DNA from: a virus
Lineage: Duplodnaviria; Heunggongvirae; Uroviricota; Caudoviricetes
Direction: 5' to 3' (one strand)
Virus record (IMG/VR): IMGVR_UViG_2734482784_000003
Length of the DNA stretch: 8,987 nucleotides
Translations under genes and position numbers: made by a program
In this document: positions 1 through 8,987 of the stretch, in pieces
Numbering within the stretch: the first letter of the stretch is position 1
Layout of the letters: every line of letters begins with the position of its first letter
The notes under the pieces: model-generated
The model's input: only the letters and a program-made list of their open reading frames with translations
What the model was told of the DNA's origin: nothing
Databases searched by the model: none

Positions 1-981
1 TTATAACGTCACTCCGCCTTTTAGTGGATTCAGAGCGACGGCATTTTGCAGATAGTCAGGCGCAAGGTGCGCATAGGCCATCGTCTGCTGAATGCTCGCA
101 TGTCCCAGAATCTGTTGCAGTGCGATTATATTGCCCCCATTCATCATGAAATGGCTTGCGAATGTATGCCGCAGGATGTGGGTTGCCTGATTGGGTGGTA
201 TATCAGGTTTCACTCTGCGTAAAATCCCGCAAAATTTCTCATAATCAACTTTGAATAATTTGGCGCTGGCCTCCTCTTTAACTTTTTTCTCCAGTTCCTC
301 AGAAATCGGCACGGTTCGCTTTTTACCGTTTTTGGTTTTCAGGAAGGTAACCCTGCAATTTGTAATCTGTGCTGGTTTTAGCGTGGCAACTTCCGTCCAT
401 CTTCCTCCAGTGCTCAGACATAAAAGCGCGACAAGTAAGTCATCACCAGCCAAAACATTTAACAGTTTTTCGATTTCTGCTTTTTCCAGGAACGTCATTT
501 CAGGGTTGGCCTCCGCCAGTGGCGGCAGTCCGTGAATTGGGTGTTGCCCGGAAAATTCATCCAATTGAATTAATTTTGTGAACATGCCGGATAATCGGTA
601 CATGTCACGGTTTATCGTTGCGGCACTGATACCATCACGTAGTCGCATGGAACGATAATCCATCAAAGCCCTTTTGCTCATCCTGCTCACTGGTATATCA
701 CCTATGCCGCTGATGGTTTTGAGTAGATGATTAAACTCTTTTGTTCCATGCTCGTGGTTTTGCCCGTGATATTTCCACCAGATGTCCAGCAACTCACTCA
801 AAGTCCGGCGGTCTGCTCGCTGGCCTCCCCATTCTTTCTGACTGGCATTGGCGATTGTGTATCGCTCAAATGCTAGTGCTTCAGCTTTTCTTTCGAATTT
901 CCTGCGGATGCGTTTTCCGTCGCGACCGCGAGGTCTAATGTCCACTTCATAGCGACCATCATCGAGCTTCTTAATTGCCAT
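1..981 (-). CDS. int: Tyrosine recombinase / phage integrase (P2 Int-like)
   Basis: Minus-strand ORF 1..1011. The protein from the second Met reads MAIKKLDDGRYEVDIRPRGRDGKRIRRKF, which matches my recollection of P2-family Int N-termini. The C-terminus carries a tyrosine-recombinase signature (HILRHTFASH ... LGH ... Y). Start placed at the ATG at 979-981 because a GGAGGG Shine-Dalgarno lies about 8 nt upstream on the minus strand; the ATG at 1009-1011 has no SD. The stop codon is bases 1-3. Confidence 0.9.
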   Translation of the reverse strand: MAIKKLDDGRYEVDIRPRGRDGKRIRRKFERKAEALAFERYTIANASQKEWGGQRADRRTLSELLDIWWKYHGQNHEHGTKEFNHLLKTISGIGDIPVSRMSKRALMDYRSMRLRDGISAATINRDMYRLSGMFTKLIQLDEFSGQHPIHGLPPLAEANPEMTFLEKAEIEKLLNVLAGDDLLVALLCLSTGGRWTEVATLKPAQITNCRVTFLKTKNGKKRTVPISEELEKKVKEEASAKLFKVDYEKFCGILRRVKPDIPPNQATHILRHTFASHFMMNGGNIIALQQILGHASIQQTMAYAHLAPDYLQNAVALNPLKGGVTL

Positions 982-1050
982 AAGAAAGCCCTCCGGCGCT
1001 GTATTCACCATCTTGGTAGCAAATGGTGAAAATGTAATCTTTATATAGAG

Positions 1051-1344
1051 TTAGCCAATCCTTTTCGCGGAGTGGTTGGACTCTGTTGACTCTGGCCCAA
1101 TGTGCGCGAGAGCCGGTGCGATTTGTCCTGCGTCCGGCGCGGTTTTATCTGTCATAAGCCATAGAGCATATTTTTGGAATGTGGGATGCATAGTGATTTT
1201 TAGCAAAGCTGTGCCACCGGGTTCAAAGTTTCCTCCTTCATATTTTTTAAGTGTGCTTAGCGGTAACTCTATGATTTCACAGAATTTTGATTGGCTTAGC
1301 CCTTCAGCCTCACGCAAGGCCTTAATCTTTTCGCTTAATTTCAT
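1051..1344 (-). CDS. C: Immunity repressor, P2 C-like (HTH, XRE-type)
   Basis: 97-aa minus-strand ORF directly upstream of int and divergent from cox. The N-terminal region (SEKIKALREAEGLSQSKFCEIIELPLSTLKKYEGG) looks like a helix-turn-helix; the C-terminal QIAPALAHIG...S.HS resembles the P2 C protein as I recall it. Size and position match P2 C. Confidence 0.85.
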   Translation of the reverse strand: MKLSEKIKALREAEGLSQSKFCEIIELPLSTLKKYEGGNFEPGGTALLKITMHPTFQKYALWLMTDKTAPDAGQIAPALAHIGPESTESNHSAKRIG

Positions 1345-1480
1345 TTGACATGGTGCCTATATAGGGACTAAATTCCCTCAAAACTGGAACCTATATAGGT
1401 TCCATTGATTTGAGAATAAACCAGCGTCTAAACGGTTTTGAGTGGTTTAGAAAGGGCTGGATCCTATGAGGGTACCATAT
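1345..1480. promoter_or_regulatory. Lysis/lysogeny switch region between divergent C and cox; candidate rightward early promoter (-35 TTGACA 1345-1350, -10 TAAATT 1369-1374)
   Basis: 136-bp intergenic region between the C start (1344) and the cox start (1481). A perfect TTGACA hexamer abuts the C start codon, with an 18-nt spacer to TAAATT. P2-type switches are known to have closely apposed Pe/Pc promoters. I could not pin down a convincing leftward Pc promoter by eye. Confidence 0.45.
1356..1403. promoter_or_regulatory. Two copies of the palindrome CCTATATAGG (1356-1365 and 1390-1399); the second is embedded in a perfect 18-bp palindrome GGAACCTATATAGGTTCC (1386-1403). Candidate operator sites
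   Basis: Read directly from the sequence; centres are 34 bp apart. They sit over and just downstream of the candidate early promoter, between the repressor and cox genes, where C and/or Cox binding would be expected. Confidence 0.45.
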
Positions 1481-1753
1481 ATGGACGCTGAAAATTATGT
1501 GATTCAGTATCCGCTTGATGCGGTTCATGTGGATAAATTTGCTGATTTATTAGGGAAGCCAAAGACAGCTGTCAGTGAAATGGTGAAGGCAAATAAATTA
1601 CCAATTATTGAATTGCGTGATCCTTGCAAACCGAAGGCTCGTGCCGGTGAAAAATGGGTTTTCATTCCTGAGTTTAATCGCGCTGTACGTGAGGCGTTTT
1701 ATAACCGACCGGTTGAACAGCGTGATGCATGGCTTTTGTGGATGGGGTTGTGA
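1481..1753 (+). CDS. cox: Cox-like excisionase / early transcriptional regulator
   Basis: ORF 1466..1753. The protein (…DKFADLLGKPKTAVSEMVKANKLPIIELRDP…AGEKWVFIPEFN…RDAWLLWMGL) resembles P2 Cox from memory. Start chosen at the ATG at 1481 because GAGG at 1468-1471 gives an 8-9 nt spacing, and the resulting length (90 aa) matches P2 Cox (about 91 aa). The ATG at 1466 is an alternative. Confidence 0.8.
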   Translation: MDAENYVIQYPLDAVHVDKFADLLGKPKTAVSEMVKANKLPIIELRDPCKPKARAGEKWVFIPEFNRAVREAFYNRPVEQRDAWLLWMGL

Positions 1754-1755
1754 TT

Positions 1756-1926
1756 ATGAATGAGCCGCGTTGTATTGCTCAGTTATTGCGTAACGAAAGC
1801 CCCAGGGCGATTGACTTCACCATCACCCACGGGAAGGGACGCAAGGGAATCATTATCCGCACCAAAAAACAGAGTCCGTTAAAAAAGGCTCTGACCTTTC
1901 TGAAAAGCCGGAGGGTCTGGAAATGA
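1756..1926 (+). CDS. Small basic hypothetical protein (same position as P2 orf78)
   Basis: ORF 1729..1926. The ATG at 1756 lies 2 nt after the cox stop (TGA 1751-1753) with a GGGG stretch upstream, suggesting translational coupling; the ATG at 1729 is an alternative start. Its stop overlaps the B start (ATGA at 1923-1926). Function unknown. Confidence 0.5.
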   Translation: MNEPRCIAQLLRNESPRAIDFTITHGKGRKGIIIRTKKQSPLKKALTFLKSRRVWK

Positions 1927-2423
1927 CAGTGATGACGCTCAATCTCGTTGAAAAACAGCCAGCAGCTATGCGCCGGATAATTGGCAAGCATCTTGCCGTC
2001 CCTCGCTGGCAGGATACATGTGATTATTATAATCAGATGATGGAACGCGAACGGCTAACGGTTTGCTTCCATGCGCAGTTAAAACAGCGTCACGCAACGA
2101 TGCGTTTTGAAGAAATGAACGACGTCGAACGTGAACGGCTGGTTTGTGCAATTGATGAATTGCGTGGGGCATTCTCAAAACGCCGTCAGGTTGGCGCAAG
2201 TGAGTATGCATATATTAGTTTTTTAACAGTCAGTCAGCGTCGTACTTTATTTATGCATGCCGGATTGACTGAAAAAGAATTCAACCAGCCATACTGGCGA
2301 ATTAATGAAGAATCATGTTACTGGCGTGATGCTTTATTCCGTGCATTACGTGAATTATTCAGCCTGTTTGAGTATGCACCGACAATTCTGACGTCGGTAA
2401 AACCAGAGCAATATCTGCATTAA
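1923..2423 (+). CDS. B: Replication protein B-like (P2 gpB, DnaB-helicase-loader-type accessory replication protein)
   Basis: 166-aa ORF with a GAGGG Shine-Dalgarno 7 nt upstream of the ATG. Its position after cox/orf78 and its length (P2 gpB is 166 aa as I recall) fit P2 B. The identification rests on synteny and size, not a verified alignment. Confidence 0.7.
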   Translation: MTVMTLNLVEKQPAAMRRIIGKHLAVPRWQDTCDYYNQMMERERLTVCFHAQLKQRHATMRFEEMNDVERERLVCAIDELRGAFSKRRQVGASEYAYISFLTVSQRRTLFMHAGLTEKEFNQPYWRINEESCYWRDALFRALRELFSLFEYAPTILTSVKPEQYLH

Positions 2424-2444
2424 ATAATTAACCAGAGTTTTTAA

Positions 2445-2472
2445 CGCACTTAATCGTGCGGGGCTTCTTTTT
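2445..2472 (+). terminator. Weak candidate intrinsic terminator / attenuator after B
   Basis: A 5-bp stem CGCAC(2445-2449)/GTGCG(2456-2460) with a 6-nt loop, followed by GGGCTTCTTTTT. The stem is short, so this is at most a partial terminator. Confidence 0.2.
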
Positions 2473-2486
2473 GCCTGGAGAAAGTC

Positions 2487-2711
2487 ATGCATACAGTTTC
2501 TGAAAACAAGTGCGGTAAATACGCATTACTGCTGCAACAGGCCAGAGCCGAAGCACAGGCCGACGCAGCGACACGCTTTTCTTCTCATCTTGACGCCATG
2601 ATTCGCCATATCACAAAGGCGGAGTTATCCCGCGTGGAGATAGTCGAGCTGCTCAGTCAGGAGTCGGAAAAATTTCACAATATCGGATTGTCTCGCGGGG
2701 AGGTGCTTTGA
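2487..2711 (+). CDS. Hypothetical early-operon protein (P2 orf80 position)
   Basis: 74-aa ORF with a GGAG Shine-Dalgarno 6 nt upstream. Its stop TGA overlaps the next gene's ATG (TGATG at 2709-2713). Codon usage is consistent with the neighbouring phage genes. Confidence 0.7.
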
Positions 2712-3010
2712 TGTCCTGTTCTCATTCAGTTGTATTACTGAATAACGCCTTAAAAATCGCCGTTATGAAAAATGGCGATTTGTCTCTTATTCAACTTTGC
2801 CTTGATAAAGAAAAACGCGACATAACTGAATCTGTTATCGCGATTTATCAGAATGAATTAAACCTCCTGTCTGATGTGGTCAATTTACTTGTTAAACGCG
2901 CTGTATTCCACAAGCAAATTTCCTCAGTGGATGAACTGACAAAATTAACGACAGAACTTGCCAGTTATTGCGCTGATGTATCCAGGCAACTTAACGATAA
3001 AAGGAGCTGA
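2711..3010 (+). CDS. Hypothetical early-operon protein (P2 orf81 position)
   Basis: The track ORF 2708..3010 begins at a TTG; the first ATG is at 2711, with a GGAGG Shine-Dalgarno 7 nt upstream and coupled to the previous stop. About 99 aa. Confidence 0.7.
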   Translation: MSCSHSVVLLNNALKIAVMKNGDLSLIQLCLDKEKRDITESVIAIYQNELNLLSDVVNLLVKRAVFHKQISSVDELTKLTTELASYCADVSRQLNDKRS

Positions 3011-3012
3011 TA

Positions 3013-3237
3013 ATGCCGGACAACGTAGATTTTATTCAGGAACAACAGGCTGAATTACTGGAGCGCCAGATTAACGCGGCAAGGGTAAAACATTGCGGTG
3101 CTTCTGCGCTGGTTTGCGAAGAGTGTGACGCGCCAATACCTGCAGCCCGTCGTGCGGCTTACCCGTCAGCCACGCGTTGTGTTTCCTGTCAGTCAGTCTT
3201 TGAAGCAAAAAACAAACATTACCGGAGAACGGCATGA
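3013..3237 (+). CDS. TraR/DksA-family C4 zinc-finger protein (P2 orf82 position)
   Basis: 74-aa ORF with an AAGGAG Shine-Dalgarno 6 nt upstream. The protein has CxxC-(17 residues)-CxxC (CEEC…CVSC) in a DksA/TraR-like context. Confidence 0.8.
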   Translation: MPDNVDFIQEQQAELLERQINAARVKHCGASALVCEECDAPIPAARRAAYPSATRCVSCQSVFEAKNKHYRRTA

Positions 3238-3509
3238 GTATTCGTATTGAAATTGGCGAACGTTATGTCGTTACCAGTGACAGCTTTCAGTTTATTCTCC
3301 ACGAGAAAAAGAGAGCGGAAAGCGGTAAAAACGCCGGTCAGGAATGGCTGGCGGTGGTTGGTTATTATCCGAAATTAAGCCAGCTCGTTTCCGGCCTGAT
3401 GCATCACGATATTCTGACCGGAAGCGCAAAGTCTTTTGCTGATTTAAACGCGCAGGTTGAGCAACTCAGCAAGCGTTGTTCAGAGGCTTTTGGCTCATAT
3501 GGCCGTTAA
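3234..3509 (+). CDS. Hypothetical early-operon protein (P2 orf83 position)
   Basis: 91-aa ORF. Its ATG overlaps the previous stop (ATGA at 3234-3237); GGAG upstream. Its 3' end overlaps the start of A by 11 nt. Confidence 0.7.
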   Translation: MSIRIEIGERYVVTSDSFQFILHEKKRAESGKNAGQEWLAVVGYYPKLSQLVSGLMHHDILTGSAKSFADLNAQVEQLSKRCSEAFGSYGR

Positions 3510-5778
3510 AGCCTCCGGGCGTTTTGTCCCTCCGTCAGCATTTTCCGCAGGCACCGGTAAGACGTTTGCCGGTGCTTATGCATGGAACGCGCCACGTGAG
3601 GCTGTCGGGCGCGAAAGACCCCTTACACGTGACGAGATGCGTCAGGTGCAAGGTGTTTTATCCACGATTAACCGCCTGCCTTACTTTTTGCGCTCGCTGT
3701 TTACTTCACGCTATGACTACATCCGGCGCAATAAAAGCCCGGTGCACGGGTTTTATTTCCTCATATCCACTTTTCAGCGTCGTTTATGGCCGCGCATTGA
3801 GCGTGTGAATCAGCGCCATGAAATGAACACCGAAGCGTCGATGCTGTTTCTGGCTGAGCGTGACCACTATGCGCGTCTGCCGGGGATGAATGACAAGGAG
3901 CTGAAAAAGTTTGCCGCCCGTATCTCATCGCAGCTTTTCATGATGTATGAGGAACTCTGCGATGCCTGGGTGGATGCGCATGGCGAAAAAGAATCGCTGT
4001 TTACGGATGAGGCGCAGGCGCATCTGTATGGTCATGTTGCTGGCGCTGCACGTGCTTTCAATATTTCCCCGCTTTACTGGAAAAAATACCGTAAAGGACA
4101 GATGACCACGAGGCAGGCATATTCTGCCATTGCCCGTCTGTTTAACGATGAGTGGTGGACTCATCAGCTTAAAGGCCAGCGTATGCGCTGGCATGAAGCG
4201 TTACTGATAGCTGTCGGGGAGGTCAATAAAGACCGTTCTCCTTATGCCAGTAAACACGCCATTCGTGATGTGCGTGCGCGCCGCCAGGCAAATCTGGAAT
4301 TTCTTAAATCGTGTGACCTTGAAAACAGGGAAACCGGCGAGCGCATCGACCTTATCAGTAAGGTGATGGGCAGTATTTCTAATCCTGAAATTCGCCGGAT
4401 GGAGCTGATGAACACCATTGACGGTATTGAGCGTTACGCCGCCGCAGAGGGTGATGTGGGGATGTTTATCACGCTGACCGCGCCGTCAAAGTATCACCCG
4501 ACACGTCAGGTCGGAAAAGGCGAAAGTAAAACCGTCCAGCTTAATCACGGCTGGAATGATGAGGCATTTAATCCAAAGGATGCGCAGCGTTATCTCTGCC
4601 GTATCTGGAGCCTGATGCGCACGGCATTCAAGGATAATGATTTACAGGCCTACGGTTTGCGTGTCGTTGAGCCACACCACGACGGAACGCCGCACTGGCA
4701 TATGATGCTTTTTTGTAATCCACGCCAGCGTAACCAGATTATTGAAATCATGCGTCGCTATGCGCTCAAAGAGGATGGCGACGAAAGAGGAGCCGCGCGA
4801 AACCGTTTTCAGGCAAAACACCTTAACCGGGGCGGTGCTGCGGGGTATATCGCGAAATACATCTCAAAAAACATCGATGGCTATGCACTGGATGGTCAGC
4901 TCGATAACGATACCGGCAGACCGCTGAAAGACACTGCTGCGGCTGTTACCGCATGGGCGTCAACGTGGCGCATCCCACAATTTAAAACGGTTGGTCTGCC
5001 GACAATGGGGGCTTACCGTGAACTACGCAAATTGCCTCGCGGCGTCAGCATTGCTGATGAGTTTGACGAGCGCGTCGAGGCTGCACGCGCCGCCGCAGAC
5101 AGTGGTGATTTTGCGTTGTATATCAGCGCGCAGGGTGGGGCAAATGTCCCGCGCGATTGTCAGACTGTCAGGGTCGCCCGTAGTCCGTCGGATGAAGTTA
5201 ACGAGTACGAGGAAGAAGTCGAGAGAGTGGTCGGCATTTACGCGCCGCATCTCGGCGCGCGTCATATTCATATCACCAGAACGACGGACTGGCGCATTGT
5301 GCCGAAAGTTCCGGTCGTGGAGCCTTTGACTTTAAAAAGCGGCATCGCCGCGCCTCGGAGTCCTGTCAATAACTGTGGAAAGCTCACCGGTGGTGATACT
5401 TCGTTACCGGCTCCCACACCTTCTGAGCACGCCGCAGCAGTGCTAAATCTGGTTGATGACGGTGTTATCGAATGGAATGACCCGGAGGTCGTGAGGGCGC
5501 TCAGGGGTGCATTAAAACACGGTCGGAGAACGCCAAGTCGTCAGCAAAGAAACGGAAGCCCGTTAAAACCACATGAAATTGCACCATCGGCCAGACTGAC
5601 CCGGTCTGAACGATTGCAAATCACCCGTATCCGTGTTGACCTTGCTCAAAACGGTATCAGGCCGCAGCGATGGGAGCTTGAGGCGTTAGTACGCGGTGCG
5701 ATCGTCAATTACAATGAAAAGCAATTTTCATATCCTAGTGTAGATGAGTGGAGTGGGTTTTCTGGTTATTCAGAGTAA
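3499..5778 (+). CDS. A: Replication initiation protein A (rolling-circle HUH endonuclease, P2 gpA-like)
   Basis: The track ORF 3457..5778 starts at a TTG; the first ATG at 3499 gives MAVKASGRFVPPSAF…, which matches the P2 gpA N-terminus as I recall it (about 760 aa). HUH motif HWH at 4693-4701 (…PHHDGTPHWHMMLF…) and a YxxKYxxK catalytic-tyrosine motif at 4846-4869 (YIAKYISK) support a rolling-circle initiator. Confidence 0.9.
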   Translation: MAVKASGRFVPPSAFSAGTGKTFAGAYAWNAPREAVGRERPLTRDEMRQVQGVLSTINRLPYFLRSLFTSRYDYIRRNKSPVHGFYFLISTFQRRLWPRIERVNQRHEMNTEASMLFLAERDHYARLPGMNDKELKKFAARISSQLFMMYEELCDAWVDAHGEKESLFTDEAQAHLYGHVAGAARAFNISPLYWKKYRKGQMTTRQAYSAIARLFNDEWWTHQLKGQRMRWHEALLIAVGEVNKDRSPYASKHAIRDVRARRQANLEFLKSCDLENRETGERIDLISKVMGSISNPEIRRMELMNTIDGIERYAAAEGDVGMFITLTAPSKYHPTRQVGKGESKTVQLNHGWNDEAFNPKDAQRYLCRIWSLMRTAFKDNDLQAYGLRVVEPHHDGTPHWHMMLFCNPRQRNQIIEIMRRYALKEDGDERGAARNRFQAKHLNRGGAAGYIAKYISKNIDGYALDGQLDNDTGRPLKDTAAAVTAWASTWRIPQFKTVGLPTMGAYRELRKLPRGVSIADEFDERVEAARAAADSGDFALYISAQGGANVPRDCQTVRVARSPSDEVNEYEEEVERVVGIYAPHLGARHIHITRTTDWRIVPKVPVVEPLTLKSGIAAPRSPVNNCGKLTGGDTSLPAPTPSEHAAAVLNLVDDGVIEWNDPEVVRALRGALKHGRRTPSRQQRNGSPLKPHEIAPSARLTRSERLQITRIRVDLAQNGIRPQRWELEALVRGAIVNYNEKQFSYPSVDEWSGFSGYSE

Positions 5779-5984
5779 TAAACATAATGTTTTAGATTGG
5801 TTGCATAATGGTAAGGTTGCTGTTTATCTGTATATGTTAATATGATTACGCTACGTACAAATAATCGACATTTCTTTTTTTCTATATATTAATATTGATG
5901 ATTTTACTGGTGGTACAATAAGTCTATGTTGAAATTCGAGAATTGTATTATTAACAATAAAAACTGGTTCTTTTTATTATACAA

Positions 5985-6012
5985 GGACCACCTCCTTAGG
6001 AGGTGGTCTTTT
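5985..6012 (+). terminator. Strong hairpin terminator between convergent A and the cargo gene
   Basis: 10-bp perfect GC-rich stem GACCACCTCC (5986-5995) / GGAGGTGGTC (5999-6008) with a 3-nt loop, followed by TTTTACTGTTT on the plus strand. It lies 6 nt from the stop codon (6018-6020) of the minus-strand cargo gene. The hairpin may act bidirectionally, but the U-tract is only clear on the plus strand. Confidence 0.6.
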
Positions 6013-6017
6013 ACTGT

Positions 6018-8501
6018 TTAACGAGGGTTTCGCGTATAGGTTTCAACTATGTCTGATGCACGTAATTTACATGTGATCAATTGTTCTCTTATAAATATCT
6101 CATCGTGTCGTTTATCACTTGTACAAATGGCCGTGATAAAACTGAGGATAGATGCTTTAAAACGTTCAAGATCATTTATGGTCATTATTCGAGACCCTTC
6201 GTTTAGTGTTGCGGCATATTCAGGCATGTTAGAGTGATGTATCATTATAGGTGTGGCGGTAGCAGTTTGATCATACATGTTTCTGAACCATGCACCCGAC
6301 CCATTTAACTGATTGCAGTCATGCTTACTTATTCTTTCTGCGGTTGCTCCATTTTTGCATTCAATTACTAGATAATTGTTTTCTCCCATTGCCCATAAAT
6401 TGTCAGGTCCTTTACCTGTATCATTTTCTGGCCGTTGGCTACGAAAACCGATCAAATATGCAACTTTTTCGATAGCATCTTCGAAGGGATTCGATGTGCC
6501 CTCGGAGAAAATAAGGTTTTCTATTATTGAATTAGTATGCACAACGACTTGATTCGCCGATTCAAAATTACTTCTGAGATAGGAGCTACATTCCCTGGCC
6601 TGTTCAAGTGCCGCACCATTAAGTCTATTATATGTTACGCCGATTAGTGGTTTTAATACCCGATAGTTATCGTTTGATGCAGACTGAAGCAATATCTGAG
6701 CTTCAGATTTGTCATATAAGTTTACATATTCCGCAGCATGTTCTTTTAGATAACCCTTATAAACTTTGTCAGCTGTACTACTATCATTTTTTAGAGTTAA
6801 AGCGGCTTGTTGAAACATATTTCGTGATGCGAAGTCATATGCCAATCTTTTGTTTATAGTATGCTGGTCAATCTGCTTATTTTCCAATGTTAAGCCAGTC
6901 AATATACCTTTGCTTTTTGAGACCCAGTCAGAATTGCGTAACAGACAATAATCAAGAGCACCTTTGATTGAATCAATAGTTGTATCCGGCAGTATCGATA
7001 CCAATTGCTGTGAAAGTTGAATTTGTGCTTTCGTTGCTGGAGAAAACCTTTCTAAGGAGGAGCCAAGGAAAACAGCGCCATTTAATGCTTTGCCAAGTAA
7101 GATCACTCCGCAGAAGTCGTCGCTTGATCTCACTCCTCGCCCCATTCCTTGTTCAATTTTCTGGATAATTTCATCTTTGGTTTTTTCGCTTCCAAGCAAT
7201 AAGCTTTGTGAGACTTTATCTATTAGTCTACGAACGTCAGGAAGTCCATCTATTACTAATAGACGACATGCGGTATTTGGTAAATCAATACCATCATATC
7301 TATTAACTAGGACTACTAAGCCAACATGTTGTGTCCTTAATTCTTGTACACCTTGATAAATTGTATTTTTATCTAATATTCTGTCTGCAACATCTTGCCA
7401 AAATCTAGTTCTGTAATCGGATGGTACAATTACAACAACATTATGTTTGGAGGATATCTCCTTGCACATAGCTTTGATATCTACATCAGAAAGACTAGGG
7501 TTTATAACCTGAGGCATTAGTATCATTCTATCACCAATATCACCAATTGTTTTTGGTGTTATCGGATTAGAGAGTGATTCATCCGTTATTCCGAAGTGGC
7601 TCGCTAGAATGGATTCATCGACAAGAGTAGCTGTCATGAATATTTTTCTTCTTGCGTTTGATAGGCTTGGGATCATTTGGATTGGTATGCAATGAGGTGA
7701 TATCTCTATTTTGGAAGCACTTACAACGCATTTCGATAATATTAGATTGTCTTTTATTAATGGCCATTTGAAACTCAAGTCATCATGGTCTTTATTTTCT
7801 AACAAGATTGTCATTATATCATTTATGCTTTCTTGCCATTTCCAAAATGGAACTCTCACATAAGCATTTCTATCGCCGGATTTTATCTCTAGTGTTTTTG
7901 CACCAGCTTGTGTCATTAGTGAATTTTCAAAAATTCTGAATAATTTATCATAGGCAGGGTTATTTTTTTGAATGCTAATGGAGAATTGTTCTTCAATTGA
8001 AGAAAGGCAAGCGTGAGCATCGTCAATTATTATAGAACCTATTGGTATTTTTTGTCCATCATCTCCAACGCCAAATGCAGAACGTCCATTAACCACTTTG
8101 AATATATTTGTAACTAAAATTTCTTTACCTGCAATAAATTTGGGGGACCTCTCATCTTGAGTTACAGGTATACCAAGTTGATTAGCCTCCAAAACCACTT
8201 GCTCAACTAGATAGTTGTCAGGAACAACATATACAGCGGGACCTTCTCCTTCATTTATACAGCTTTTAAGAATGATTAACCCAACTGAAGTTTTACCGCT
8301 TCCGGTATTCATTTTTATTACATTGGTTGGGCTTCTCCTTGCTTCATACCATTTTTCCCAGACCTCTGATTGCACATCTCGAGGGTATTGAAATTTGGTG
8401 TCTTTGCTCGGTAGAGCTGTAAATATATCTCGCGGTGGAATCGCTGTGTCGCTATTTACACTGGGCGAAAGCTTGGTTAAATCAAGGAAAAAACCAGACA
8501 T
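6018..8501 (-). CDS. Large SF2 helicase with C-terminal PD-(D/E)xK-like nuclease motif; candidate single-gene anti-phage defence protein in the P2 A-to-cos cargo hotspot
   Basis: 827-aa uninterrupted minus-strand ORF. AGAGGA Shine-Dalgarno 6 nt upstream of the ATG (8499-8501), with an in-frame stop two codons further upstream fixing the start. Motifs read directly: Walker A GSGKT (aa 67-71, nt 8289-8303), motif II IIIDDAH (DDAH at nt 8013-8024), motif III MTAT (nt about 7626-7634), motif VI QGMGRGVR (nt about 7128-7151), and C-terminal GPD…(13 aa)…IECK (D700, E714, K716; nt 6354-6407). The gene is markedly AT-rich: hand counts on a few 60-nt lines give roughly 28-38% G+C, against about 60% in one line of A. 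Confidence 0.85.
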   Translation of the reverse strand: MSGFFLDLTKLSPSVNSDTAIPPRDIFTALPSKDTKFQYPRDVQSEVWEKWYEARRSPTNVIKMNTGSGKTSVGLIILKSCINEGEGPAVYVVPDNYLVEQVVLEANQLGIPVTQDERSPKFIAGKEILVTNIFKVVNGRSAFGVGDDGQKIPIGSIIIDDAHACLSSIEEQFSISIQKNNPAYDKLFRIFENSLMTQAGAKTLEIKSGDRNAYVRVPFWKWQESINDIMTILLENKDHDDLSFKWPLIKDNLILSKCVVSASKIEISPHCIPIQMIPSLSNARRKIFMTATLVDESILASHFGITDESLSNPITPKTIGDIGDRMILMPQVINPSLSDVDIKAMCKEISSKHNVVVIVPSDYRTRFWQDVADRILDKNTIYQGVQELRTQHVGLVVLVNRYDGIDLPNTACRLLVIDGLPDVRRLIDKVSQSLLLGSEKTKDEIIQKIEQGMGRGVRSSDDFCGVILLGKALNGAVFLGSSLERFSPATKAQIQLSQQLVSILPDTTIDSIKGALDYCLLRNSDWVSKSKGILTGLTLENKQIDQHTINKRLAYDFASRNMFQQAALTLKNDSSTADKVYKGYLKEHAAEYVNLYDKSEAQILLQSASNDNYRVLKPLIGVTYNRLNGAALEQARECSSYLRSNFESANQVVVHTNSIIENLIFSEGTSNPFEDAIEKVAYLIGFRSQRPENDTGKGPDNLWAMGENNYLVIECKNGATAERISKHDCNQLNGSGAWFRNMYDQTATATPIMIHHSNMPEYAATLNEGSRIMTINDLERFKASILSFITAICTSDKRHDEIFIREQLITCKLRASDIVETYTRNPR

Positions 8502-8560
8502 TTTTTATCCTCTTACAGGTACATTAGTTTAATTGTTAACGCAGAATTATCATTACCATA

Positions 8561-8590
8561 ACTTGCATTAAGTTGCATTACATTGCATTC
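8561..8590. repeat. Three tandem 10-bp repeats containing TTGCATT (acTTGCATTA / agTTGCATTA / caTTGCATTC)
   Basis: Read directly: TTGCATT begins at 8563, 8573 and 8583, an exact 10-bp periodicity. The repeats lie 60-90 bp upstream of the cargo gene start, in its presumed promoter region, and about 95 bp before cos. Confidence 0.6.
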
Positions 8591-8624
8591 ATAAACGTTA
8601 GCTAGGGGCGAAGTCTGAGGTTTG

Positions 8625-8987
8625 ATGGGCTATGGTGTCCCCTTTAATACGAGGTTGCATCAAAACCGCCCCATGAAGCGGGCGGGCGAGGCGGGGAAAG
8701 CACTGCGCGCTGACGGTGGTGCTGATTTTATTTTTTCAGCGTCTGAGCGCGTCGTGAAGGCGTTTACTTGGCCTGCTGGGGCGTTGGTGTGGCCGGATTT
8801 CCTCGCATGGGATACGGTCACCAGTACCACCGCCACCGCGTATGCCACCGCCCGTGCGCTGGGTCTGCGCGCTAAAATCGACCAGGAGCAGGGCTGGCAT
8901 AAAACGCTGTCCAATGTTCTCCATCAGCCTGGCTACCGGTCGGGCAGATATTTACACGGAAACACCGGTCAAAGTGTCTGGCTTTAA
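8625..8987 (+). CDS. Hypothetical protein (doubtful ORF spanning the cos region)
   Basis: Track ORF 8622..8987 (TTG; first ATG at 8625, GAGG 4 nt upstream); its stop codon is the last 3 bases of the window. Codon usage in the 3' half looks E. coli-like. However, the 5' part overlaps cos and the conserved packaging region, which is non-coding in P2/P4, and in P2 the portal gene Q is expected on the opposite strand here. Low confidence. Confidence 0.3.
   Translation: MGYGVPFNTRLHQNRPMKRAGEAGKALRADGGADFIFSASERVVKAFTWPAGALVWPDFLAWDTVTSTTATAYATARALGLRAKIDQEQGWHKTLSNVLHQPGYRSGRYLHGNTGQSVWL
8685..8703 (+). other. Phage cohesive-end site (cos), P2/P4 type
   Basis: GGCGAGGCGGGGAAAGCAC matches the 19-nt P2/P4 cohesive-end sequence as I remember it. 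The following roughly 50 bp (TGCGCGCTGACGGTGGTGCTGATT.TATTTTTTCAGCGTCT.AGCGCGTCGTGA) also closely matches my recollection of the P2/P4 genome left end. This was not verified by alignment. Confidence 0.6.

Follow-up and report, generated by a model that had tools for sequence, protein, structure and literature searches.

A probable Hna-family anti-phage cassette in the cos-adjacent hotspot of a P2-like prophage

We analysed a stretch of 8,987 nucleotides (nt) from the virus record IMGVR_UViG_2734482784_000003 (Caudoviricetes), referred to in full as the window, in which positions 5779-8684 separate replication gene A from the cohesive-end site (cos) of a P2-like prophage. Very probably, this segment is an anti-phage cassette with one gene, which belongs to the Hna (helicase-nuclease abortive infection) family, and it is lodged in the known A-to-cos/Q hotspot of P2-like phages. 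Its only gene, here called hna, encodes a predicted superfamily 2 (SF2) helicase joined to a PD-(D/E)xK nuclease, 827 amino acids (aa) in length. An earlier reading of the same DNA, made from its letters and open reading frames (the sequence-only reading), had described the segment as a compositionally foreign cargo island in place of the tin/old segment of P2.

RESULTS

Assignment of the cassette gene to the Hna family

Using PADLOC-DB 2.0.0, in which PDC-S28 is a candidate system, we found that the 827-aa protein matches the PDC-S28 model PDLC04986 over its full length with 1055.7 bits. A phmmer comparison with the PDB identified a single solved structure by sequence (10UJ/9YKJ/9YHN, E value 4.7e-121 over residues 60-792), annotated as an 845-aa 'Helicase ATP-binding domain-containing protein'. 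The entries 10UJ and 9YKJ are cryo-electron microscopy structures of Hna from Sinorhizobium meliloti (Hooper et al. 2026, PMC13381803). With a profile of 16 homologues the alignment to S. meliloti Hna runs from end to end (residues 3-826 against 2-842, E value 4.4e-161), and a direct BLASTP comparison gave 32% identity over 751 columns (E value 1e-129). The S. meliloti protein, its sequence rebuilt from the alignment with lengths checked, scored 1015.3 bits on PDLC04986. Since both proteins match the same PADLOC model, PDC-S28 is the Hna family, of which the two are equally good members.

The helicase part of the protein carries a Walker A motif (GSGKT, residues 67-71), motif II (DDAH, 160-163) and motif VI (QGMGRGVR, 451-458). 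Matches above the Pfam gathering scores were obtained for ResIII (E value 8.7e-10) and DEAD (E value 2.3e-08), spanning residues 40-170, and for Helicase_C_2 (E value 6.5e-06), spanning residues 400-471; ResIII and Helicase_C_2 are the Pfam domains given for Hna (PMC11232893). Pfam returned no match in the final 230 residues. This part of the protein contains the nuclease residues D700, E714 and K716 of a C-terminal PD-(D/E)xK site, and the segment GPD700...E714-C-K716 aligns with GPD713...E727-C-K729 of S. meliloti Hna. In the latter protein K729 is catalytic, and the K729A mutant is nuclease-dead (Hooper et al. 2026, PMC13381803). The catalytic motifs are invariant in the 16 homologues, which have about 190 invariant positions, and the reading frame of 2,484 nt is intact. 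There are more than 3,900 homologues of 827-834 aa, and those from Enterobacterales, Pseudomonas, Legionella and cyanobacteria share about 53% identity. Between motifs I and II there is a single cysteine, which makes a four-cysteine cluster impossible there; the iron-sulfur cluster of DinG and XPD is thus predicted to be absent, and this absence also fits Hna. No specific NCBIfam model matched the protein, the only hit being a sub-threshold one to the dnd restriction helicase. Judged by its sequence, the protein is homologous over its full length to S. meliloti Hna, whose biochemistry and structure have been characterised, and the residues predicted to catalyse ATP hydrolysis and DNA cleavage are in place.

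An AlphaFold2 model built from the 16-sequence alignment was poor overall (mean predicted local distance difference test score (pLDDT) 61, predicted template modelling score 0.37), with a confident nuclease domain (pLDDT about 80-95). When this low-confidence model was submitted to Foldseek, the best match was the Hna monomer 9YHN (E value 6.9e-46, template modelling score 0.57), followed by the dimer 9YKJ and then by XPD and DinG. A resemblance to XPD and DinG is also described in the Hna paper (PMC13381803).

Composition of the segment between A and cos

The G + C content of the island is 36.9%, compared with 48.5% for positions 1-5778, 52.9% for gene A and 58.7% for the DNA past cos (8685-8987). 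Within the island, values of 28.5%, 37.4% and 39.7% were obtained for the 239-nt stretch 5779-6017, the open reading frame (ORF) and positions 8502-8680, respectively. In 300-nt sliding windows, a computation that the sequence-only reading had proposed, the island ranges from 0.30 to 0.42 (mean 0.37) and the left part from 0.38 to 0.58 (mean 0.49), and the G + C content at third codon positions is 28.6% for the 827-aa ORF versus 53.4% for A. The AT-richness noted earlier from hand counts is therefore borne out by full computation, while the figure of about 60% that had been quoted for A corresponds to a local peak. The largest steps in G + C content are at about 5700 and about 8665; the left step thus comes ahead of the A stop codon at 5778, and the final ~20 codons of A (~5712-5778) are already AT-rich and unlike among P2-like phages. 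The earlier description of one gene opposite to the early operon also agrees with our analysis, in which the 827-aa ORF is the sole gene of the island and is convergent with A. ORFs in the spacer are of at most 33 aa, as expected by chance, and in 10 prophages the gene callers placed nothing else between A and the portal gene.

Cassette exchange at a known P2 hotspot

The window was aligned with P2 (NC_001895) and with four other P2-like phages. Positions 1755-5711 align with P2 at 96.9% identity and positions 8656-8790 at 89.7%, and no match to P2 was found between 5711 and 8656. The slot is occupied in P2 by orf91-tin-old (3.2 kb, 35% G + C) and in the window by an unrelated 2.9 kb. The four other phages have the same flanks around a DUF4209 gene, a cytolethal distending toxin operon, Dcm with paraMORC3, and a Fic/VbhT protein, respectively. 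A non-homologous middle between collinear flanks, as foreseen by the sequence-only reading, is thus seen against P2 and against all four phages.

The proposed boundaries, the A stop and cos, were right in part. Both landmarks are exact, with the P2 cos 19-mer GGCGAGGCGGGGAAAGCAC at 8685-8703, and the right breakpoint falls at 8656/8657 in all five comparisons, 29 bp left of cos. The left breakpoints, however, are scattered (5600, 5685, 5711, 5735, 5751, 5759 and 5840), so that by homology the variable segment extends from ~5712-5841, depending on the phage compared, to 8655 and begins inside or just past the 3′ end of A. Correspondingly, the final ~10 residues of the A protein vary between P2-like phages with different cargo. 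The tail of A in the window and the 62 nt downstream of it are common to phage vB_EcoM-569R9, in which the cargo (DUF4209) is otherwise unrelated, and this sharing points to nested exchange junctions in a left recombination zone at 5712-5840. The description of the cassette as compositionally foreign also needs qualification: it is AT-rich, but so is every cargo examined at this site (33-41% G + C), including tin and old in the P2 segment itself. Low G + C content therefore appears to be a general trait of the contents of the slot.

That the exchange took place at a fixed hotspot, the remaining part of the earlier proposal, is in accord with the literature, in which the site is a published P2 hotspot (Rousset et al. 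2022, PMC9122126; PMC13586616). Rousset et al. (2022, PMC9122126) describe the A/cos locus of P2-like phages as a hotspot in which 1,650 gene arrangements were counted over 18,150 occurrences, old/tin being the reference occupants, and a 2026 Nucleic Acids Research study (PMC13586616) confirms the P2 hotspot. Table S5A of Rousset et al. contains a single-gene 'ResIII/DEAD' arrangement among the P2 loci. This arrangement, with the entry WP_021570163, is probably the gene of the window. As far as the texts of these two studies are accessible, Hna is not named at this site. Our literature search found no paper naming Hna together with P2-like phages, and 'PDC-S28' appeared only in one unrelated survey. 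From the alignments the segment is identified as cargo of the cos-adjacent gpA-gpQ hotspot of P2-like phages, between A and cos/portal gene Q.

Distribution of the cassette

The island was found at an identity of at least 99.7% in 70 of 5,426 complete Escherichia coli genomes, and its flanks in 2,154 of them. By megablast, 96 phage records match the window, nearly all of them P2-like phages of Escherichia, Yersinia and Salmonella. Their aligned parts run from 1 to ~5600-5750 and again from ~8656, at 94-98% identity; none of the 96 reaches 80% coverage of the window, and none contains the island. A distant-mode search of 50,697 phage records with the island returned only the 62-nt match just past the A stop. 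By these counts the 827-aa gene is cargo rather than a core gene of P2-like phages.

The exact protein is encoded in intact P2-like prophages at two chromosomal sites, beside yegR/yegS and beside cpxP, and on different P2 backbones the island keeps 99.6% identity. In a Rouxiella P2-like prophage, an orthologue (70% identity) fills the A|Q slot as well and has the same relative orientation as hna; a Pectobacterium orthologue (80%) is part of an integrase island with Lamassu-type genes next to it, and one from Pseudomonas aeruginosa (54%) belongs to an integrative element. In all three cases the DNA similarity is limited to the ORF, and the orthologous gene is AT-rich relative to its surroundings. 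The hna gene is limited to a minority of P2-like prophages, and its relatives also occur in other mobile elements.

Proposed function

Hna is a single-protein abortive-infection system that is triggered by expression of a phage single-stranded DNA-binding protein (SSB) alone and leads to cell death with no progeny, according to the account of Sather et al. (2023) given in PMC12445080. In vitro, Hna is a Mg/Mn-dependent 3′-5′ exonuclease on single-stranded 3′ ends, not on double-stranded DNA, and it is restrained by ATP binding as an auto-inhibited homodimer from which phage SSB frees it (PMC13381803). Activation by phage SSB has likewise been reported for an E. coli Hna (PMC10732053). By homology with this family (PMC12445080, PMC13381803), the following course of events can be proposed for the window protein. 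Lysogens would express the protein from the cassette's own promoter next to cos, and it would idle as an ATP-stabilised, auto-inhibited homodimer. The SSB of a superinfecting phage would release the dimer, and the freed C-terminal PD-(D/E)xK domain would then degrade DNA in the 3′-5′ direction from single-stranded ends. No progeny would leave the infected cell, which would die or stall, and the lysogenic population and its resident prophage would be protected. The protein most likely acts, on this analogy, as an ATP-restrained 3′-5′ exonuclease of single-stranded DNA, which the SSB of a competing phage turns on and which brings about abortive infection. Annotation with Pfam and RefSeq identified no SSB gene in the early region of the window. 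To our knowledge, P2 also has no SSB gene, so the carrier prophage may tolerate Hna untriggered.

Several observations weigh against this assignment or against parts of it. Only 32% of the aligned positions are identical to those of the characterised Hna. Because the helicase core is modelled with low confidence, the fold match largely repeats the match in sequence. The HEL1 loop (T30/D31/P34), through which Hna forms its dimer and is auto-inhibited in an ATP-dependent way, is not matched exactly: the aligned stretch in the window protein is K33-D34-T35-K36...Y39-P40, and the alignment of KDTK..YP with ATDKGP is gapped. Within the clade of the window protein this segment is strongly conserved, with K33, Y39, P40, R41 and D42 invariant. 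Given the low identity and the non-identical dimer-loop residues, the regulation or the trigger may differ from those of S. meliloti Hna. In addition, no sigma-70 consensus site was found upstream of hna on the minus strand, the number of hits in the region equals that expected from shuffled sequence, and hand inspection revealed no convincing -35/-10 pair. The promoter is presumed to lie in 8502-8655, and expression of hna in the lysogen is therefore an assumption.

Other explanations of the gene

The gene could in principle be a housekeeping DinG/XPD-like helicase with which the phage carries out its own replication, recombination or repair. It directly adjoins replication gene A and the origin, the repair helicases XPD and DinG are its next fold relatives after Hna, and the PHROGs family phrog_16128 is filed under unknown function, with neighbours under DNA metabolism. 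We consider such a role very unlikely, since the gene is missing from P2 and from each of the 96 phage records that match the window, occurs in just 70 of the 2,154 genomes with the locus, and differs from the early operon in strand and composition. Its orthologues in non-phage islands beside Lamassu-type genes, the single cysteine between Walker A and motif II that leaves no room for a DinG/XPD iron-sulfur cluster, and the abortive-infection activity of the validated family member argue in the same direction. Decay was also considered; in this reading the segment would be a dispensable remnant without function, its low G + C content would stem from decay or mutational bias, and its ORF would not be under selection. 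The prophage in the window is itself degraded, with two internal deletions past cos. The intact frame, the number and uniform length of the homologues, their identity across Gammaproteobacteria and cyanobacteria with all catalytic motifs among the invariant positions, and the exact protein in many intact prophages, within an island nearly identical across different P2 backbones, nevertheless make this explanation extremely unlikely.

A restriction-like nuclease, which would degrade incoming phage DNA and spare the cell as a first-line defence in the manner of type III/IV helicase-nucleases, is also unlikely. ResIII is the best Pfam match, the dnd restriction helicase match in NCBIfam and PADLOC matches to Cas3 and type IV DinG are weak, and at 32% identity to the characterised Hna the outcome could differ between clades; diversity among Hna orthologues is in fact expected by Hooper et al. 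(PMC13381803). On the other hand, the cassette has no methyltransferase or other partner gene, the characterised nuclease of the family works on single-stranded 3′ ends only and not on double-stranded DNA, and the family phenotype is cell death without progeny. We therefore retain abortive infection by an Hna-family protein as the preferred explanation of the gene.

Two named systems were examined as candidates and rejected. For type III restriction-modification (Res), there is no adjoining Mod gene and no second gene in the cassette, and the PADLOC match to MTase_II is negligible (E value 0.0068). For Hachiman, there is no neighbouring HamA (DUF1837) gene, and no HamB model is among the PADLOC matches.

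Gene order and non-coding features of the window

The window corresponds to the arm of a P2-like (Peduovirus) prophage that holds the early and regulatory genes. The order of the genes follows Pfam and the annotation in RefSeq of an E. coli prophage, L003, that is 98.8% identical (Table 1). A mosaic boundary lies at ~1755, between cox and the B region. Positions 1755-8791 are ~99% identical across the hna-bearing E. coli prophages, and the int-C-cox part (1-1754) is of two unrelated types, one integrated beside cpxP, as in the window, and the other beside yegR/yegS, as in P2. A single hna-bearing replication arm is thus combined with different integration/immunity modules.

Table 1. Coordinates of the features of the window
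Feature	Position	Strand	Basis or remarks
Integrase	1-981	minus	Pfam and RefSeq annotation of L003
Repressor C	1051-1344	minus	Pfam and RefSeq annotation of L003
cox	1481-1753		Pfam and RefSeq annotation of L003
B	1923-2423		Pfam and RefSeq annotation of L003
Four small early genes	between B and A		Pfam and RefSeq annotation of L003
Gene A, P2 replication endonuclease; left conserved landmark	3499-5778	plus	Pfam Phage_GPA, E value 1.8e-123; RefSeq coding sequence of L003
AT-rich non-coding spacer, ~28% G + C	5779-5982		Between A stop and hairpin; first 62 nt common to vB_EcoM-569R9
G + C-rich hairpin, 13 pairs	5983-6011		7 nt past hna stop, ~200 nt past A stop
hna, predicted 827-aa SF2 helicase and PD-(D/E)xK nuclease, Hna/PADLOC PDC-S28 family	6018-8501	minus	Sequence, profile and fold matches
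Cassette-specific upstream region of hna	8502-8655	minus	Direct reading; no homology to P2
Conserved P2 cos region with GC hairpin (8666-8685) and cohesive-end 19-mer; right landmark	8656-8790		~90% identity to P2 and four P2-like phages

The hairpin between A and hna is terminator-like on the plus strand, where its folding energy is -21.6 kcal/mol (z -5.3) and a U-tract follows; for the minus strand the energy is -18.9 kcal/mol (z -4.7) and the U-tract is only weak. We take it as a probable convergent terminator, which may mainly stop read-through from the early operon. Of the strong terminator that the sequence-only reading had seen as insulating the gene, the stable, terminator-like hairpin is confirmed, and its role as a terminator is deduced from these features. 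Upstream of hna, a Shine-Dalgarno sequence (AAGAGGA) is found at 8508-8514. Three exact copies of TTGCATT start at 8563, 8573 and 8583, exactly 10 bp apart and 62-88 nt ahead of the hna start codon. The count of this heptamer in the whole window is not above chance; the helical phasing of the copies suggests a putative protein-binding site or promoter element. Rfam gave no match at the gathering threshold anywhere in the window. A conserved 6-bp all-GC hairpin on the minus strand (8666-8685) is followed by a T-run (TTTTGATG) and abuts the cos 19-mer. This hairpin could be a terminator against leftward late-side transcription into the cargo slot or a part of the terminase recognition region.

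A deletion remnant past cos

Past 8790 the window does not continue into portal gene Q, unlike all of its relatives. Positions 8790-8917 instead come from the tail sheath gene FI (128 bp, P2 18216-18343), and positions 8916-8987 are a 3′ part of gene D (P2 23750-23821). Both deletion junctions are clean, with microhomology of 1-3 nt. About 23.5 kb with the head, lysis and tail genes are missing, while int, C, cox, B, A, hna and cos are kept. The FI and D fragments in place of Q and the genes beyond it indicate that the prophage is a deletion remnant of roughly 10 kb. When IMG/VR, the JGI metagenomes, the GTDB species genomes and the complete E. coli genomes were searched for the exact junctions, no match was obtained; the junctions either are peculiar to the source strain or arose as an artefact of assembly. 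On the plus strand, a frame open for more than 121 codons (8622-8987) begins shortly ahead of cos, crosses the fragments of FI and D and reaches the window end; most likely the deletions created it as an accidental fusion.

The ~10-kb element keeps functions for integration (int), immunity (C, cox) and cis-acting replication (B, A and the origin) together with cos and hna, and it might also be viewed as a miniature P2 derivative. A P2-like helper, either co-resident or superinfecting, would then excise, replicate and package it in the manner of a satellite. We regard this as highly improbable. If it were true, a defence gene would be the main cargo of a satellite-like hitcher, and the element would parallel P4 and the cos-adjacent defence hotspot of P4.

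DISCUSSION

The predicted helicase-nuclease of the window resembles S. meliloti Hna in being the product of a single-gene system and in being collinear with it over the whole protein (827 versus 845 aa). Both have SF2 HEL1 and HEL2 domains with Walker A, a DExH-type motif II and motif VI, and the window protein is predicted to lack an iron-sulfur cluster, as Hna does; both have a C-terminal PD-(D/E)xK domain with the catalytic lysine conserved, and both score nearly equally on the same PADLOC profile. They differ in that the window protein, at 32% identity, belongs to a tight enterobacterial/cyanobacterial clade and has non-identical dimer-loop residues. They also differ in location, the S. 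meliloti gene being borne on the pSymA megaplasmid and the window gene being carried by a P2-like prophage.

Comparison with orf91-tin-old of P2 concerns the position and the presumed use of the segment. Both segments lie between A and cos, tin and old are transcribed leftward as is hna, and the two are similar in length (3.2 versus 2.9 kb) and in G + C content (35% versus 37%). The P2 segment consists of lysogenic-conversion genes that exclude other phages, and the same is predicted from homology for the window. P2 Tin acts through the SSB of T4, gp32, as described for Mosig et al. (1997) in PMC8987985, and is thus keyed to the SSB of a competitor as Hna is to phage SSB. There is no sequence homology between the two segments, however: Old is a nuclease of the ABC-ATPase/TOPRIM type, Tin has no relationship to helicases, and the single gene of the window stands in place of two defence genes and orf91 in P2. 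With the P2-like gpA-gpQ hotspot as published, the segment shares the position next to cos, the conserved flanks and the exchangeable short systems, and we see no difference in kind.

The coupling of a helicase/ATPase module to a nuclease effector is also found in Hachiman (HamAB), Nhi, DdmD and ExoDinG proteins, and several of these systems are likewise activated by phage SSB (PMC12445080, PMC11232893, PMC10732053). Hachiman differs in requiring a separate DUF1837 protein, HamA, of which there is none in the cassette, and Nhi in having an N-terminal nuclease and an SF1 helicase. No PADLOC model of any of these systems scores near PDC-S28 on the window protein.

The P2 gpA-gpQ hotspot and the Hna family have both been described already, and our analysis contains no new biology beyond those papers. 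Its main value is as a worked confirmation that a cassette swap at the cos-proximal hotspot of P2 can be recognised from the DNA letters alone. The cargo, which public annotation calls a 'DEAD/DEAH box helicase family protein', can now be named as Hna. The prophages concerned offer a natural E. coli and Salmonella setting for questions about the host range of Hna, its triggering by SSB and its compatibility with the phage that carries it, and they present one hna-bearing replication module combined with two integration/immunity modules at two chromosomal sites.

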